Shown: in pieces, positions 3,986 to 62,557 of the stretch | How the letters are laid out: each line of letters opens with the position of its first letter | Position numbering within the stretch: position 1 is the first letter of the stretch | DNA from: Eledone cirrhosa | Taxonomy: Eukaryota | Assembly: GCA_964016885.1 (NCBI GenBank) | Contig: OZ024745.1 | Span: 102,734,001-102,798,000, forward strand | Reading direction: 5' to 3' | DNA length: 64,000 nucleotides | Program-made: the position numbers and the translations under genes | The notes under the pieces: generated by a model | Databases searched by the model: none | What the model saw: only the letters and a program-made list of their open reading frames with translations | Told to the model about the DNA's origin: nothing

Positions 3986-5445
3986 AGTTTATATATTACA
4001 TTTTCGTATCTACCAAGAGCTGAAATTTTTCTCTTTTATTTTTACTGATATCACAGAAGTGCCAATACTAACTAAATTGATAACCGACTTTGGCATTTAT
4101 TGGCTGAGCAACATTGTATGATTCTACATCATGAAAATTAGTTCCCAACTATGTCACAATCTTAGTGACAATTTCACTCTCTTTGTAATCAAACTTGCTG
4201 CAAAGTCAATAAATTGTTTTAAGCTATCATTATGAAATGCAAGAAAATTGCTTTTCACAAAATGACATAAGCATTATGTGAAATTGTAATGAAAACAGGA
4301 TACCATTTGGCAAGGATGTGTAATCTGCAGATGTCATCTTGGTCTTCAATCCCAATTGGCTAATTAATTGCTTTATGAGGCCATCATACTTTGTGACAAT
4401 GATGCTGATTGGCTGAACATATGACCTCAAGCATCCAACTCAACAAAATTTGAAAACAGTGAAATGATAGACAATCTTGTTTTTTTTTCACATATTTATT
4501 TGGTCTTCCCAAGGTTATTGTAAAATACACTTTGCTAGGGTTCCGATGATGATGGTCATTGTGTTAGCAATGATAAAGATGCTGGTGGTAGAGATGATGG
4601 GGAAAATAGCAAAAAGATTATGATGAAGGAGATTGTCAGGTAATTCAGCTTCAAGTTGCATGAACAGAGTCTAAATAATGGTTAGGTTAAGGACAAATTG
4701 AATGTGCCACAACACCATTGCAGCAAACTTACAGAGTAATGCAATTTCTTTTTAATTTCTTTTGGTAAATGAATAAATAAATAAAATTAAAAACAAAAGT
4801 TAAAAATAAAATAGTAGTATATTAAAAATAGCTAACTTAGTTCATAGAAAAATGTACAAACAAAAAAAAATATCTAACAAATCATATAAGAATATTTCGT
4901 CTAGCATGATTAGAACCCTCACATACATACCCAAAATAATTTATAACTGAAAATCTTCTCAAAAGAACACAAAAGGTTTCTAATAAATAGCAGTGATAGA
5001 ACAACAATACATTGTGGATCAGATTTTGATGCTGTCCCAAAAGTTATTTACAGGATGGTAGCATATAACATAGCAACTATAGTTTTCAATAGTGGCAATC
5101 TTCTTTCTGTATGAAGTTATTGAGTCTTTTGACAATCCTAGTTTAAGGCAAGATTAAGAAGCAGGAGGAAATTATGTAATAGAACAAATGGAATTAATGT
5201 GTGTATGTATTAGTATATAGCTATATGTATATGTATGTATGCATGTATATAGATAGTATACATGTATTATATGATATATATATATATACTATAATGCACG
5301 TATACTATCTATTTTAATGTGTTTATTGAAAGTGAAACAGATATATACAGCAACAGGAAATGACAGAAATGCAGCCTGAACAGACAATGGTTAAGAAACT
5401 GAAAGAGAGGAAATAGTGGAAAGAAAATACAGAGAGCAAGAAATT

Positions 5446-7206
<1,761 letters not shown>

Positions 7207-26138: not shown

Positions 26139-26220
26139 ACCTTTACCGCGGTTTCATGCTCCAGAATAAACGGAAAATCCAAGCGGATTTCCATTGAGAA
26201 GGGAGCAATCTTCAGAAGGC
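26139..26220 (-). ncRNA. Type I hammerhead ribozyme with minimal stem III
   Basis: gcctt CTGAAGA t tgctcc[...ggaaatcc gctt ggattttcc...]ggagca t GAAA c cgcg g TA aaggt. GUA cleavage site and palindromic CGCG loop 3. Confidence 0.88.
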
Positions 26221-26636: not shown

Positions 26637-26718
26637 GCCTTTACCGCGGCTTCATGCTCCAGAATAAACGGAAAATCCAAGCGGATTTTCATTGAGAAGG
26701 GAGCAATCTTCAGAAGGC
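26637..26718 (-). ncRNA. Type I hammerhead ribozyme, second copy (GAAA>GAAG)
   Basis: gcctt CTGAAGA t tgctcc...ggagca t GAAG c cgcg g TA aaggc. Confidence 0.75.
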
Positions 26719-33488: not shown

Positions 33489-33650
33489 ATATTTATTAAA
33501 ATAACAGATTAAAGTTTAAGCAAAGAATCGCTGCTTTCACCCTTAAACTTTAATCTGTTATTTTAATAAATATTTGCTCTACAGTTCTTATATATTTGAT
33601 ATATATTTATCCTTATCGAGCTTCTTTGGATTCTAGTCTTCAGATTTATT
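33489..33650. mobile_element. Family X fragment with 32-bp fold-back arms
   Basis: Arms 33489-33520 and 33542-33573 with a 21-nt loop, followed by the module ttgctctacagttcttatatatttgatatatatttatccttatcgagc. Confidence 0.8.
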
Positions 33651-33662
33651 ATTATTACTATA

Positions 33663-33698
<36 letters not shown>

Positions 33699-38335: not shown

Positions 38336-40856
38336 TAGCAGAAGTACCCGGCGTTGCCCGGGTGTAAGTCGACCTTTGGTCTGTTAGAATGTGTGAAAGT
38401 TACTTCCCGCGCATCACAGGTTCAAAACTTCGAACTTCAATGGAAAAAAATAGGTTAGTAGACACAGGTGTGTAATTTATTAATTGTAGTTACACAGTGT
38501 ATCGTTGAAATTGTTCTCTGCACGACTGACGGAAGTCAAAATCGCTTGATATTGAATGTTCAGTTAATTTAAAGCAGGGTGAAAATGTCGATTACTTTCA
38601 GGGTTTTTTTTGTTTTTTTTTACAATTTTTGCGCTCACATGTGCAGAAGAAGAATTAAAAGGGCCTTTATCTTAACCGCGGCATAATGGCGAGTCTTTTG
38701 TGACAGTTTTCAAGAATATAGGACGTTCCTGTAAAAAGTTTTCCCATGTGTAACTTTGCCTTGTTTTTTTGCGCAAAGTCGAGCCCCGCTTCAGTTTTAT
38801 TGATTTTTTACATCAATGCGTGATCTCTGAAGTAGATTTGAGTAGCTAAAAACCTGTCCCGGTAAATTTGCTATAGGTGAAAAAAAGTTGATCAAAATTG
38901 TATCTAGGGTTATTGCTCTTTGCCACAGCCTCAAGCCTCGTCTGACGGGATGTTGGTGATTCCTCCGTCAGCGCTTGTTGGCGACGAAGGCGAACATCAG
39001 CAAGCCTTGTCGTACGTGATGTTGGTGACTCAACCAGCCGGGAAAGACGTCTATCAGCGAGTCGAGATTCGCGCTCAGCAGGTGTTTCCTAGAGAAAATT
39101 AATTAATTCTACTGGTTAGCTAAGCCAATGGCAGTGTCAATAGTAAATGAGAAAAGTCTAACATGAACAAAAGGGAATCAAGGTAAGACAATAAATTTAA
39201 TATAACTACGATTAGAATGTTGTAGTTGCTTAAAAGTGGTGACAGTTAGGATAAACGCAGTACTTGCTAACATTAAGGGAGAATATTGCATAAAGGATTA
39301 ATCAATTGTGAATGAACTCATACCCGAGAACGCCTAATTCGTTGTCTCAAAGCAATAGCTGTACCTTTTTTGGAGGTAAGTCTTGAACGTTTCCGTGTGG
39401 GCATAACGACGTGTAACGAAGCTGTTAGGTTAGAGAGAGGTGATTAAATACAGAGAGAGATGACACCAGATTCGTTAGCATGGTTACTGGTGAATGGGAA
39501 GGTTTGGAAATATGATTACAATAACTTACCGAATTTTCCCGTCTATAAATTGCACTTAAAATAATTAAATTTAATCAAAAAACAGCTCTGCGCTTTATAC
39601 TCCGGTGAGCCTTATGTATAAATAATACAATGGTAATCAATCACGGCTCTAACAGAAGTAATAGATCTAGACTAAAAGTAAAGAAGATAGCATTTTCTGG
39701 TTGGCCTTACACGCCTTTGCGCGGACCGGATTTTAAATGATACGCCTTATATCCTGGTGAGCCTTATAGAGCGGAAAATATCTATTGGAAAAGAATACGA
39801 ATTCATGACCAAGGTGTGACAAAATAGGCGTCTATACAGCGCCTGAAACAAACTTGTCCAAAACCCTAGGATTTTTCTCGTTAAGTATCCACCCAAAAGG
39901 AACCGTTTTTTAGTTACAAAAAATAACCAAAGTGTATAGTAGCTATATTTCTGACATATCATGCCACAAAGAACAATATATTCAAAAAATGTTCTAAAGT
40001 ACATTCAATCTCTCTTTTTGACCGATATCTTAGTAAGCAAGTTATCGATTTTTTATTGGCTGTCAGTGTCTATCTGCATGCAGGTGTGCACGTGTGCGCA
40101 ATTAATTGCAAATACGCTCATAACATTTAGTCGTAAGCAGAACAAAAAATGCCATTAAAGGTGGGCTAATAATGAAGACACAAACTCTGGTGAATTTACG
40201 TTTAAACACCCGAAAAGTTACTCACTTCCTGTGCAAAAGACTGTATTATAAATTAAGTAATTTTTTAGAATCTTTTGTTTAAACAAGGAAAACATTGGTA
40301 CGACGTAAATTTTTTTACTTGTATTGTATGTGTACAACACAAGTTGGTTAACGTATTATTTAGTAATTTTTTTTTTCAAAAAGCATGATTATTTAAGACT
40401 GTTTGAAAATTTACGCACAGCTTTTAGGTTCACAAAAGACACCATTAAATTTGGTTCCCTTTTCAGATAGGGATAATACTGTATTTCCACTTGAATAAGG
40501 TGGAATATGAAAAGAAACTCTTTAATGGTCGGTCGTTTACTGAGACAGCTGGGAAGACATGCAGCTGGCCGTCCAATCAATAACGCACGTCCTTATATGG
40601 GCATATGAAATTTATTTTTATTGCGCCAGATGTAAACTAAGAGTTCTTGTGTTCGAATTCACATAAAATTTCATTGGAATCGAAAAACATTCTGTCATGG
40701 GGCCCGATTATCGATTTTTCGAAAATTTCAAGTAGCCTATTCCACTCTACGCGTTGAGTTTTATATATGTGTGAGGTTTCATGAAAATTGGATGAACGGT
40801 GTAGCAGGCAAGTTCGGTACACTAAACAATGTCCATCTTCCCTTTATATATATAGA
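38335..40856 (-). mobile_element. Non-autonomous Helitron (~2.5 kb)
   Basis: 5' A|TCTATATATATAAAGG at 40856. 3' hairpin cccgggcaacgccggg and CTAG|T at 38335. Confidence 0.8.
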
Positions 40857-40861
40857 TATAT

Positions 40862-40965
40862 ATATTAAAATAACAGATTAAAGTTTAAGCAAATAATTGC
40901 TGCTTTCACCGTTAGCCGGGATCTTCTGAAACTAAAAAAATCAATCTGTGAACGCAGAAGTAAAG
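40862..40965 (-). mobile_element. Family X fragment with variant hammerhead (40882-40933)
   Basis: Minus strand: agttt CAGAAGA tcccggctaacggt GAAA gcagcaattatttgc TT aaact. Confidence 0.65.
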
Positions 40966-41020
40966 ATTCAATAGTCTAGATTTTATGAGGGCACTGTGTA
41001 GCGGATAGTTTATATTAAAA

Positions 41021-41400
41021 CAAGCTGATGTACCCGGCTTCGCCCGAGAGAACAGTGAAGAGAAGACGGATAAAAGAGAAAACGACTGTATTGGGTGTGT
41101 TGTCAGGTATGAGGTGAGACCGTAATATGTGTGTGCGTGAGAGACATAAAAAAAAACAATAATAAAACTTCCTTATTAGGCTGAGGGAGTAAACTGCCGA
41201 TTAAATGGTAGTATTGGCCTTGGATTTTAAATGTGAAATAACCATAGTCAGTATGATCTTTTTCAGCTCTTAAGGACGTCATCTGAAACACAGCAATATA
41301 CCGCATATCATTGCTTCTGAGGTGTTTAGCTTCGTTAGTACGGTCTGTAAGTAGTATATGGATAAAAGCTGGAGGGTAGATTAATTTCAAACAGTATCAG
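41021..41400 (-). pseudogene. Decayed Helitron Rep fragment with 3' hairpin
   Basis: FQMTSL...FTFKIQGQYYHLIGSLLPQP is the Helitron RepHel motif. Hairpin remnant at 41033-41048. Confidence 0.75.
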
Positions 41401-47868: not shown

Positions 47869-48020
47869 AATGTAGAAAGGCTTCTACAGGACTAGAACTG
47901 TTTCATTCCAAAGAAATCATCACCTTACTTACTGTGGTTACCCCCGATTGAACCCGGTATAAACTTATATACAATGATATTAAATAAATGGAAACTATAT
48001 TTATTTATAAAACCATATTT

Positions 48021-48079
48021 ATTCTATTATATATATTTCAAGGCTACCAAAACTTTGGTACGCTCTCATCAGATAAAAT
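48021..48079 (-). ncRNA. Minimal type I hammerhead ribozyme in PLE pLTR
   Basis: attttat CTGATGA gagcg taccaaa gt tttggta gcctt GAAA t atat a TA atagaat. 7-bp stem I and palindromic ATAT loop 3. Confidence 0.8.
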
Positions 48080-48679
48080 ACAAAGTTTGTTTTATAAATA
48101 TTGAAATAAGGGCGGTGCCCCAGCATGGCCTCAGCCGGATGGCTGAAACAGGTAAAAGAGTAAAAGAGTATAACCAGCAAGAAGATCTTAACGGTTCAAG
48201 TTTTTCCTGGATAGTAAAGGAAAGAAGGGAAAGAGAAGAAAAGTCAAATATTTCAAATTATTAAGATGAGTATGCAAATGAGGTTGAGGTATAGGGCTTA
48301 ACAAAACGTTATTTTAAGACGCTAGGTAGATTTAAATAATTATTAGCATACATGTATGTATGTGCGGGAAGAAGAAAGTGAAAGAAAGAAGAGCTTGTAT
48401 TTACATTAATTTAAAAAGAATTAAGTTTGTAGGAATGGTGGAATATAATTCCAGAATTTAAAAAAAATATTTAGTTATATTATGAGTATAATATTGTATA
48501 TATAATCAATTAGATTATATGAAGAATTATGGTTGTAAGTATATTTTATCTTATTACATTACAACAGGTTGTAAGTATATAAATATCTATATAGATTAAA
48601 AATTGTGTAAGTATAAGTATTATTGGTGATTAAATTAATAGAGTTTTGAGAGTTAATTATATAAAAAAAATTCCTCGAT

Positions 48680-49262
48680 ACACATGAGAAAGCCATATTT
48701 CTGTATGCAGTTGCTTTCGAAATCGTTCCCCGAGATATTGAATACTCTATATTGTTGTCCTTTAAATTACAAATTAGATGTGAAAGTGAAGTGGAATATT
48801 TTTTTATTGAACCTATTAAATGTATGTTTGTGGTTGTACCAGCGTTCTTTGAATTTTGTAGAAGTGGCACCTATATAGTTAATTATTTTGTTTGTAGTTT
48901 TAACTGTGCATTTATAAATTACGTTTTTGTCTAAGCAATTATTTTGTAAAGGGCAGTTTGATTTAATTCTACAGTTACATTTTCTGGAATTGTTGTTATT
49001 AGGAACGGTACTATTATTTTGAATATTGTTGTTAGAAATATTATTATTGCTATCTTGGTTTGTTTGGTTAGGGTTTAAATTTAAGTTTCTATTATTAATT
49101 CTATTTATATTTTGTGCTATGTTCATAGTAGTAGAGTAGGATAGTTTTATAGTGTGTCTGTTAAAAATAGAGTGGTATCTGTGGGCTTTAGGAAAACACT
49201 TATCTAGTGCTTTAAAAAATAGCTTTGCTAAAGGTGTTTTAACGCCTAATGAGAATGGGGGA
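48680..49262 (-). pseudogene. Frameshifted Penelope-like RT thumb/linker plus GIY-YIG endonuclease
   Basis: PPFSLGVKT...IFNRHTIKLSYS...CNCRIKSNCPLQNNCLDKNVIYKCTV...YIGATSTKFKERWYNHKHTF, then STSLSHLI after a frameshift. Confidence 0.88.
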
Positions 49263-50110
49263 GAGTACTAATACCTTATAATCTCACACAAAATAATATA
49301 TGTTTCTCTACATACTTTCTGAGAAAATCATTCATCAAATTTAATGGTTAGCAAATAAGATTGGAGTTATCTTTTCCTTTACAATTGAGCAAACATAAAC
49401 ATGATCACTTGTATGATAAATTATATACCTTCGCTAAATTAACAATATTCTGAAAACATTTTCAATGTTGGAACAAAATATTTGAATCTACAAATTGTTC
49501 CCCTCTGACAGCTTGAACTACATCTTTTTCTTAAATTTTTTCATGTAAAATGTAAAATCAACATCCTTCGTAACTCATATGATAAATATAAACAATTAAT
49601 AACCGTGGTTTATTTCTATAAAATCACCAATAATACTTATACTTGCACAATTTTTAATCTATATAGATATTTATATACTTACAACCTGTTGTAATGTAAT
49701 AAGATAAAATGTACTTACAACCATAATTCTTCATATAATCTAATTGATTATATATACAATATTATAACTCATAATATAGCTATATAATTTTTTAAAATTC
49801 TGGAATCATATTTCACCATTCTTACAAACTGTTAATTCTTTTTAAATTAACGTAAATACAAGCTCTTCTTTCTTTCTCTTTCTTCTTCCCGTACATACAT
49901 ATATCCTAATAATTATTTAAATCTACCTAGCGTCTTAAAATAACGTTTTTTTTTCAGCCCTATACCTCACCCTCATTTGCATACTCATCTTAATAATTTG
50001 AAATATTTGACTTTTCTTCTCTTTCCCTTCTTTCCTTTACCATCCAGGAAAAACTTGAACCGTTAAGATCTTCTTGCTGGTTATGTCAATATTTATAAAA
50101 CAAACTTTGT

Positions 50111-50169
50111 ATTTTATCTGATGAGAGTGTACCAAAGTTTTGGCAGCCTTGAAATATATATAATAGAAT
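50111..50169 (+). ncRNA. Minimal type I hammerhead ribozyme in the inverted pLTR
   Basis: attttat CTGATGA gagtgtaccaaagttttggcagcctt GAAA t atat a TA atagaat. Confidence 0.75.
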
Positions 50170-50809
50170 AAATATGGTTTTATAAATATAGTTTCCATTT
50201 ATTTAATATCATTGAATATTATCCTCCAGAAAAGCTGTCGAGTGCTTCGAATCAATTATAAACATTTATATTTGTTGAATTACCAACAAATTAAATATCC
50301 CTTTTTCTTATATATAATATATATATATTATAAAGCTGACGGCCGTATGTATGTAACAAACTTTTCGCCAAACGGCTGGACCAAAAAGCACCAAATTTGC
50401 ACCATAGATGTAACTTTTTCCAAGTAAGAAAGTGAGGGTATTTTTGTCTTTTAAATATTGTTAAAAGATTAAAGATATTTTATCGTTTATTTAAATATTC
50501 ACTTCTTAAAAAATTTTGAAATGTCAACGCTTCCGGTTATACGACATTTCTCACTCTTTCTTAATCTGTCTTTTTAGATAGATACATAGCTATGACGTCG
50601 CGCCCTTATAATATGTCTCTGTATGTCTGGCTGTCTGCATTAGATACATAGCTATAAAGTCCCACGCTTATAATATCTGTCTGTCTGGCTGCCTGTCTGC
50701 ATTGACTTCGTTTCAAAGCAACTTTTAATTAGTTCAGTGCAAAGATTATATATATATATATATATTTCTATACTTTTCATTTATATATATATATATATAT
50801 ATATAATTA

Positions 50810-51105
50810 GTAATAATTATAATAAATCCAAAGAGGGCTCGATAAGGATAAATATATATCAAATATATAAGAACCCTAGAGCAAATATTGTTCTCATTGC
50901 TGACGTATTATCTTCGCTTTTTTCTGTCCATTGCCAGGGAACGTCTTCACGAACCAAAGTATCGTCTTCCTGTTTTCCTTCGGTTGCAACGTTTTTCGAA
51001 ATATTTACTTCTGCGTTCACAGATTGATTTTTTTTAGTTTCAGAAGATCCCGTTAAGGGTGAAAGCAGCGATTCTTTGCTTAAACTTTAATCTGTTATTT
51101 TAATA
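50810..51105 (+). mobile_element. Family X copy (modules A-B-C) between (TA)n tracts
   Basis: Reverse-complement match to 61303-61521 and 33575-33630. Confidence 0.85.
51036..51086 (+). ncRNA. Type I hammerhead fold with non-canonical core (CAGAAGA)
   Basis: agttt CAGAAGA t ccc gttaa ggg t GAAA gcag cgattct ttgc TT aaact. All three stems pair. Confidence 0.6.
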
Positions 51106-51126
51106 TATATATATATATATATATAA

Positions 51127-60925: not shown

Positions 60926-61095
60926 ATAATAATGATGATGATGATGATGGGAAAATGACCTTTCCCACAGACATGGTTACGAGAGCGTAGGACAACAAGC
61001 AAAAAAATTAGAGAAAATTATTGAACTATTAATTCCATATTTAATAAATAAAGCATATTTTATCAAGAAATTATATTTAGAATTTTTAGTTTGTA

Positions 61096-61873
61096 CTAGC
61101 AGAATGGCTCGGCGTTGCTCGGGATTCTAAACATAGATTGGCATGTTTATTCCCCCTTTCTGAAACAGTACAGAGAAGTACGGAATACCTCGGCCTCGGG
61201 ATGGTGTCTACATTTTGTGCTTTCGTGAAATAAATACGTTTGTTTATATTTTGTTTTTGTGTATGCAAAAATATTTGTACACGAATATATAATTATATAT
61301 ATTTATTAAAATAACAGATTAAAGTTTAAGCAAAGAATCGCTGCTTTCACCCTTATCGGGATCTTCTGAAACTAAAAAAGTCAATCTGTGAACGCAGAAG
61401 TAAATATTTCGAAAATCGTTGCAACCGAAGGAAAACAGGAAGACGACACTTTGGTTCGTGAAGACGTTCCCTGGCAATGAACGGAAAATAGCGAAGATAA
61501 TACGTCAGCAATGAGAACAATATATATATATATATATATAAATATATATATTATTATAACACACACACAGATAGAGAAGTCAATGTTTTCATAATGTAGT
61601 AATGCAGATAGCTACACATACAGACAGATATTATAAGGGCGCGACGTTATAGCTATGTATCTATCTAAAAAGAAAGACTAAGAAAAAGAGAGAGAGAGAG
61701 ATCGCTAACCGGCGCCTAATGCGGTCCTTAGGGCATTGAAAATTTGAAATATATTTTGCTCAAAACACTCACACGACTATAAGTATTACATGTGTAAAGT
61801 TTGAAAAAAATTGGTTGGCTGGTTCTCGAGTTTTAGGGGGACAGACAGACATTCTCTGTTTTGGATATATAGA
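61096..61873 (-). mobile_element. Non-autonomous Helitron interrupted by family X
   Basis: 5' A|TCTATATATCCAAAACAGAG. 3' hairpin cccgagcaacgccgag and CTAG|T. Confidence 0.7.
61224..61521 (-). mobile_element. Family X copy (modules D-A-B) with variant hammerhead (61323-61373)
   Basis: Minus strand: agttt CAGAAGA t ccc gataa ggg t GAAA gcag cgattct ttgc TT aaact. Confidence 0.8.
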
Positions 61874-62557
61874 TTTGTCATCACTTTATATATATTGGTG
61901 CAGGCTTGTCTGTGGGATAAAATAGTTCGTTTGGAAATCACGTGGTTTCAGTTTCATTCCCACTGCGTGGCATCCTGGTAAAGTGTTTTTCTATTGAAGT
62001 CTCGGATTTACCAATGCTTTATATGTGAAATTTGGTAGACGGAAAGGTGCGGAAGCCCATCCTATGAACACACACACACACGCACGCACGCACGCATTAT
62101 ATATATATTTATATATATATACATATAATACGTATATATATATATATATGTGTGTGTATATATATATACATACATACACGTATTTTCGCTCTTTATTTTC
62201 TTTCTCGTTTTCTCTCATCACTCCTAACCAAAGTTCCAAATAACTTTTTTCTCCGCTTTACTCGGTTGCACAATTTCCTTGTTGTGCCCTAGTAGTAAGA
62301 CTTTTTTTAAAAATTATATATATATATATCGACTCATAGTTTCCTTGTCTACTGAACCGTTTCTTCAGTCGTAAGACTTTCCTATTTGTTTGCGGTTTCG
62401 TATTTCCGTTGTTCACTGTGTTGTTTGCCAATGTCATAAGACCTTTCATTCTGTATTTTCCGATAATTGTTGTACTGTTCCACACTCATATTTCACTATT
62501 ACTAGATATTTTATAGCTGTACAGCTCGTTATTTCAAGCTGAAAGTCTTGTCACCCA

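Follow-up and report, generated by a model that had tools for sequence, protein, structure and literature searches.

A hammerhead-like motif with an A4 core in the terminal repeat of a Hydra-type Penelope-like retrotransposon

Family X copies and their neighbours in the window

The 64-kb stretch of DNA analysed here (the window) holds four copies of a repeat, family X, that carry all or part of a hammerhead-like motif. The first lies inside the 5' half of a non-autonomous carrier (50321..51125, +), which we take to be Helitron-type from the hallmarks of such elements; its 3' half was not found within the 64-kb window, and no library match to the carrier was found. At another locus (L007), a 1,471-base carrier that contains a helicase C-terminal remnant and ends in a hairpin followed by CTAGT matches this half with 88% identity over its positions 1-794. 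The enclosed family X piece is made up of two parts of a retrotransposon: an inverted piece of 5' UTR, or tail (50810..50889, -), which sits between (TA)n and a truncated 3' end, and that 3' end itself, the 5'-truncated pseudo-LTR of a Penelope-like element (50885..51110, +), which terminates in (TA)n. Both parts match an intact copy of the element, L064, positions 50824-50889 being 97% identical to the bases 3' of its hammerhead and positions 50901-51110 showing 89.5% identity to the final 207 bases of its 3,243-base unit.

The motif opens with the 5' strand of a 9-bp outer stem I (51019..51027, +), which is predicted to pair with 51087-51095 at probabilities of 0.71-1.0, and continues with a bulge (51028..51035, +) that reads U8 in the window copy and CUUUGUU in the young coding subfamily, and which is the sole part of the motif differing between subfamily consensuses. 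The 5' strand of inner stem I follows (AGTTT, 51036..51040, +), its first A being the putative capped transcription start, and then core C3-A9, CAGAAGA (51041..51047, +), in which the A of position 4 is base 51042. The U.U closure, the 3-bp stem II (CCC/GGG) and the 5-base loop (51048..51060, +) are laid out as in relatives. G12-A14, helix III and U17 occupy 51061..51081 (+), with helix III forming an imperfect 17-base palindrome (51064-51080) and the cut predicted after 51081, and the motif closes with the 3' strand of stem I (51082..51095, +; inner part 51082-51086, outer part 51087-51095).

The second copy (61216..61523, -; hammerhead 61323-61373) lies within a Helitron-type element at about 61094-61874, the third (40845..40968, -; hammerhead 40882-40933) is shorter and more decayed, and the fourth is partial (33489..33676), running from loop 2 onward (33489-33546, -) and joined to an inverted tail. 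The first-pass annotation had reported three copies, and we found them at the sites it gave, with C3 at 51041 (+), 61368 (-) and 40928 (-). The layout that it described (stem I AGTTT/AAACT, CAGAAGA, a U.U pair with a 3-bp stem II, GAAA and a CUU site) is borne out, and its stem III, given as gcag/ttgc, reads AGCAG/TTGCT; it missed the outer stem I, the fourth partial copy and the origin of 50810-50885 as inverted 5' UTR. Its account of where the copies differ stands for loop 2, loop 3 and stem II of the 40.9-kb copy, which has a one-base insertion and a G-to-C change, and is incomplete in that the stem I bulge differs as well. The differences among the window copies look like post-insertion decay, and two of the three are carried by Helitron-type elements, where a working ribozyme is not required.

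Several other features share the window. At 47900-50320 lies another element of the family X clade, now decayed, with about 40% protein identity (48682-49267, -), inverted ends and two canonical hammerheads of the CUGA type, 48022-48078 (-) and 50112-50168 (+). Two hammerhead-like motifs at 26140-26219 and 26638-26717 (-) stand in tandem, each with CUGA in the core and a long insert in stem II; the former is the top hit in the window (23.9 bits) of the covariance model described below. A long AT-rich minisatellite with units of about 8-14 bases (5300-7200) is the source of matches to Rfam microRNA families. The stretch 41200-41340 (-) reads like what is presumably a Helitron protein remnant, and the string CAGATGA...GAAA at 41285 (-) was set aside as a chance motif in this apparent Helitron coding sequence, not a hammerhead.

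The carrying element and the base at position 4

Judged by its protein motifs and its anatomy, the element whose terminal repeat is family X is a Penelope-like retrotransposon with Hydra-clade motifs. In the 3.0-Gb genome, core matches paired on opposite strands pointed to loci that hold RT and GIY-YIG frames, and a protein search of the genome scored 116 places, many of them with a 713-codon open frame. In L064, the 3,243-base unit comprises a 130-base 5' UTR, a 709-aa ORF and a 3' UTR of about 1 kb that ends in the hammerhead; a direct repeat of the element end lies upstream of the unit, and (TA)n lies downstream. The single ORF encodes RT and then a C-terminal GIY-YIG (709 aa; YRDD, IVY..YIG), as in the Hydra clade, and the motifs of the protein are RWR (RWK in most homologues), DKT (in L063, L085 and L089; NKT in L064), YRDD, CxCX5C (CNCRNRADC), IVY..YIG, CxxC (CDLC) and CxH (CKH). 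Pseudo-LTRs, partial tandems, inverted truncated copies and (TA)n targets are all present, and in place of a canonical hammerhead the repeat carries a homologous motif with A4. Pfam returned no family on two protein fragments; among the 120 homologues listed, PF26215 was found in many and PF01541 in one. The placement in the Hydra clade rests on motifs and anatomy. The RT tree, built by a quick method from unnamed homologues, groups X with P0004 and family Y, described below, with another piece of this genome. A search of viral contigs gave no match.

A reading of family X as a pure Helitron passenger was rejected, as intact coding copies carry A4. Moreover, among 90 loci picked on single-base variants, 12 were in the tested carrier, 14 had an ORF and 64 were fragments or other sequence, so most copies spread by retrotransposition. 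Sequencing runs labelled as other organisms (X4-X6) contain near-identical pieces at a depth of 5-12 with position 4 unchanged; these were not counted, since low-level admixture could explain them.

Position 4 is A in almost the whole family. The genome contains 18,547 exact 30-base matches, of which 18,366 have A4, 72 read CUGA and the other 109 have C or G; the consensus is thus A4 and not CUGA (18,366 vs 72), in line with the first-pass annotation, and a CUGANGA descriptor would indeed miss a core that reads CAGAAGA. All 30 loci picked on protein alone have A4 in the 3' hammerhead (28 of these motifs lie 800-1,100 bases from the ORF end, the other two at 741 and 150), CA stands at positions 3-4 in 106 of 107 motifs from 79 protein- or ORF-picked loci, and 30 older-subfamily loci picked on the 3' UTR gave 27 CA, one CG and two gapped motifs. 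The rest of the core and every stem pair are intact, though the stem sequences differ from those of relatives. Seven of ten CUGA matches of family X (L031-L040) sit at the helix I 5' junction, and in L033/L034 an inverted junction has two arms with different bases at position 4; local inversion of a 7-base near-palindrome around the core could be the source of CUGA at junctions.

The published Hydra rows read ctga in 26 of 26 cases (supplement file S2 of PMC8557442). Among 78 metagenome loci (38-46% protein identity, some redundant; the descriptor allowed one core change), a motif was found in 51, with 50 CUGA, one CCGA and no CAGA best hits, and none was found in 27. The U.U closure is ordinary for Hydra-clade hammerheads, both in the published rows and in the metagenome motifs, and is stated in PMC3088659 to be tolerated. 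No report of a natural U4A or CAGANGA hammerhead was found among the papers listed in the literature searches; figures 5, S6 and S7 of PMC3088659 may show position-4 variants. A CCGAAGA hammerhead-like motif occurs on metagenome contig L107:2168, separate from the Hydra-type element of that contig.

Another Penelope-like family of the same genome, family Y, has a fixed U4C (CCGAAGA, about 3,900 matches; a search that allowed A, C or T at position 4 gave 4,043 matches, 133 of them with A or T) and includes several subfamilies (e.g., L329-L348, L027:2810 and L204). Families X and Y share 42-57% protein identity in matched pieces. The remaining core of Y is intact, and the core is fixed while adjacent bases vary among subfamilies (27 copies, mostly picked by a core-containing pattern). 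U4A and U4C are perhaps independent changes, the tree neighbour of Y having a possible link to a CUGA motif. Family Y apart, the other hammerhead families of this genome have CUGA; at least eight further CUGA families occur in the fetched flanks, and the genome is rich in such elements.

Comparison with known systems places these features as follows. Hydra-clade Penelope elements, in the parts of Craig et al. (2021; PMC8557442) drawn on here, resemble family X in the single ORF with RT and C-terminal GIY-YIG and the motifs listed above, in (TA)n targeting, and in a 3'-end type I hammerhead with U.U before a 3-4-bp stem II and a palindromic helix III. Family X differs from the Hydra rows in having A4 and not U4, a helix III of 17 bases vs 8-10, and G, not C, after A15.1, and from the clade in its 3.2-kb unit with a 3' UTR of about 1 kb. 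The minimal type I hammerheads of metazoan Penelope pseudo-LTRs, as sections of Cervera and de la Pena (2014; PMC4209133) describe them, share the terminal-repeat position, the many truncated or opposite-strand copies, the likely dimeric action and an expected low activity; the family-wide variant in those sections is U3-A8, a compensated pair, whereas the U4A of family X is uncompensated. The viroid U4C hammerhead (Ambros and Flores 1998, as cited in PMC3088659) is likewise a change at U-turn position 4 that persists in nature and is matched by family Y, but it has C, not A, and is a plant viroid sequence variant, whereas the change in family X is fixed in thousands of genomic copies. Non-LTR retrozymes, in the portions of PMC7229834 and bioRxiv 10.64898/2026.07.22.740005 used here, are also animal type I hammerhead repeats with a Penelope link, but they are short tandem non-coding units, whereas family X, whose coding 3.2-kb unit differs from short non-coding head-to-tail repeats, is the end of a coding element.

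Fold, homology and ends of the element

Three helices surround the core and are open at helix I, as in a type I hammerhead, and G12 A13 A14, the A15.1-U16.1 pair and H17 (= U17) are those of the type I motif, while the core departs from CUGANGA at position 4 only, with the other five fixed bases present. A covariance model was built from 25 canonical CUGA hammerheads, all from metagenome loci; 96% of the cells in its alignment are paired, with 103 two-sided changes, and none of 500 shuffles scored as high. Over the 64-kb window, this CUGA-derived model gave 21.1 bits (E 5e-4) to the 51.0-kb copy, 19.2 bits (E 2e-3) to the 61.3-kb copy and a weak 12.4 bits (E 0.28) to the 40.9-kb copy; a natural CUGA copy of family X reached 29.2 bits with the same model, a gain of 8 bits. 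Because a model built from CUGA relatives recovers two window copies, and the third weakly, the family X motif is a homologue of hammerheads with one core departure, at position 4. A hammerhead was absent among the Rfam matches listed for the window (150 of 222), and Rfam on 50000-51110 gave four matches, none of them a hammerhead; this negative is uninformative, since the canonical motif at 50112-50168 (+) in the same stretch was also missed. Given the CUGA mismatch, we class family X as a hammerhead-like variant of Hydra-type Penelope elements and not as a proven hammerhead ribozyme.

The folding energy tells against the motif: it is unremarkable (z 0.28, -1.08 and -1.61, the first for a stretch two bases short at its 5' end), and the hammerhead fold is predicted to be 2.1-2.5 kcal/mol less stable than the minimum-energy fold. 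For inner stem I, pairing is predicted at a probability of just 0.03-0.08 in the full motif, which speaks against a retained ribozyme, and at 0.0 in a 90-base RNA from the putative cap site, where stem I is not predicted with either A4 or U4. The helix III segment is predicted to be far more stable as a dimer than as a hairpin (-12.9 vs -3.6 kcal/mol). A fold in which A4-G5 pairs instead with bases of helix III was rejected as less stable (-11.4 vs -13.0).

We mapped 178 3' ends, 57 at +68/+69 and 62 at +157/+158 from C3. With the cut site at +41, the common 3' ends lie about 28 or 116 bases beyond it, so the templates were intact or re-ligated there. At the other end, a non-T base precedes the first A of inner stem I in 2,228 copies, about 12% of family X core matches, and 28 of 30 such loci read (L269-L298) are true junctions at the first base of inner stem I. 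A G precedes the junction A in 53 of the first 100 among the matches listed, where about 25 were expected (p 3e-9); in the 30 loci read, an inverted arm could account for about four of the 21 Gs. The extra G before helix I suggests a copied cap and, hence, a capped start at helix I. A CUGA family likewise has a G before helix I at this junction, in all six copies that start there. At L479, L502 and L503 the same foreign sequence is joined just before the core, possibly marking a chimeric subfamily.

No clear footprint of cutting was found in family X: none of the 249 mapped 5' ends falls on the cut site. The cut site has 795 matches and the control position four bases upstream 620; 10 of 30 loci at the former are junctions vs 3 of 30 at the latter (p 0.057), several via short homologies. 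The CUGA control families are mixed and lack a clear peak, junctions making up 13/25 vs 4/25 loci in family B (63 vs 110 matches) and 1/25 vs 4/25 in family Z (1,696 vs 213 matches, mostly a U17 subfamily), so the footprint cannot tell whether family X cuts. Among point changes at position 17 (L299-L328), G (9/18) outnumbers C, an excess expected if the stem I arms correct each other.

Persistence of the variant core

The first-pass annotation had taken the sharing of the core change among copies as the mark of a family trait. A4 is the consensus in nearly all copies, as it held, but three near-identical copies cannot tell a selected trait from one founder mutation, and sharing among copies proves nothing alone, because fixation is explained by a single change in a master copy that was successful. 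Stronger support comes from the intact protein-coding copies, which carry A4, and from successive subfamilies, which keep it. Comparison of the young and older subfamily consensuses revealed 49 differences in 472 positions of the 3' UTR and one in the 77 of the motif, which lies in the bulge (Fisher p 0.005); no change falls in the 70 positions of pairs, core and loops (p 0.001). The 70 bases just upstream of the motif are also little changed (5/70 vs 1/77 in the motif, p 0.10, not significant), and hence the conservation signal may belong to the whole element end. Conservation of the motif may also have other causes, such as overlap with the inferred start or closeness to the 3' end. A search for covariation gave no compensatory stem change within the family, the three subfamily consensuses being unchanged in their stems. 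Apparent sister families with a covarying stem II (330 matches, control 63) were rejected on 20 loci read, 14 of which were mutated family X copies and six inversion junctions of a CUGA family; the apparent stem II variants are scattered double mutants.

We give roughly even chances to the reading that the family X motif is a slowed ribozyme still kept by selection. U4A would have arisen once, in a founder copy, and would break the U-turn and slow the cutting. Transcription would start at the first base of inner stem I and yield a capped RNA, and the element's protein would nick (TA)n and copy the RNA up to the cap, the hammerhead presumably being uncut or re-ligated at the time of copying, while in a tandem transcript two repeats could pair through the palindromic helix III and cut as a dimer. 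The element would tolerate a slow rate, and selection might even favour it, since cleavage 46 bases from the cap would cost the RNA its cap and cleavage in the 3' copy its priming end; conceivably, slowed cutting would thus benefit the element. Helitron-type elements would later have captured a piece and spread it passively. In the parts of the literature drawn on here, U4C reportedly lowers activity in vitro yet suffices in vivo in a viroid (PMC3088659), and pairwise mutagenesis of another hammerhead gave low activity in every mutant of the CUGA region, whether single or double, except the C3-G8 swap (PMC9901934). We favour a slowed but retained ribozyme because mutants of the CUGA turn have low activity and yet a natural U4C supports a viroid. 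Naiad elements, which according to a passage of PMC8557442 reach high copy number without canonical hammerheads, count against a retained ribozyme.

A real prospect, although one that falls short of an even chance, is that U4A knocked out the ribozyme in the founder, that the element does not need it, and that the sequence is kept as a start, promoter or recognition signal or has not yet decayed. The low activity of CUGA-region mutants (in the data of PMC9901934 used here) agrees with such a knockout, as do the bases neighbouring the motif, which are nearly as conserved as the motif itself, and the suggestion of Craig et al., in the part of PMC8557442 used here, that hammerheads may be dispensable. 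With subfamily divergence of about 10%, approximately one change would be expected in 11-13 core bases in the absence of selection. The lack of a cut-site footprint in 249 ends points the same way but says little, as two CUGA control families are also without a clear peak. Loss of function fits less well with the unchanged 70 paired, core and loop positions (0/70 vs 49/472 in the UTR) and with the fact that both variant families, X and Y, were hit at position 4 with the remaining core kept.

We consider it improbable that family X has a fully active, fast new core in which the extended stem I, a contact between the bulge and loop 2, or dimer formation offsets A4. The long stem I with its bulge and the strong dimeric helix III would suit such a core, tertiary contacts are proposed by Perreault et al. 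to make up for core variants (in the portion of PMC3088659 used here), and copies with CUGA (72) do not outnumber those with C or G (109); against it, the pairwise mutagenesis revealed no second-site core rescue (in the data of PMC9901934 drawn on), CAGA is absent from the 26 published rows and the 51 metagenome motifs, and metazoan Penelope-type hammerheads are described as weak in vitro even with CUGA (in a section of PMC4209133). Fixation of A4 as a 3' splice site (pyrimidines + CAG), with splicing removing or rebuilding the ribozyme, is very improbable: TTTCAG does follow a pyrimidine run and a Drosophila Penelope intron ends at helix I (in the part of PMC4209133 used here), but none of 30 loci with non-C before AG joins an upstream element part here (a test that CAG-ending or non-AG exons escape), and the inferred start lies just 8 bases upstream of the site.

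Building on the reading of a slowed and retained ribozyme, we tentatively propose, though as less likely than not, that position 4 is a tuning knob: U4A and U4C may have been fixed to slow cleavage and to keep capped full-length templates, with U4A still cutting, probably as a dimer. Craig et al. (PMC8557442) treat the function of hammerheads in Penelope-like elements as open. That a broken U-turn is present in tens of thousands of copies would mean either that cutting is dispensable or that the core rules of descriptor searches have to widen, and a single genome offers three states for comparison, U4 in several families, C4 in family Y and A4 in family X. If, as is likely from the junctions, the capped start lies at the 5' edge of helix I, templates would be copied through an uncut hammerhead, which would constrain models in which self-cleavage makes the 5' end of the template. 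If position 4 does tune cleavage and the U4A motif cuts, family X would be the first working natural U4A hammerhead found in our literature search and would provide a direct handle on what the hammerhead does for the element.
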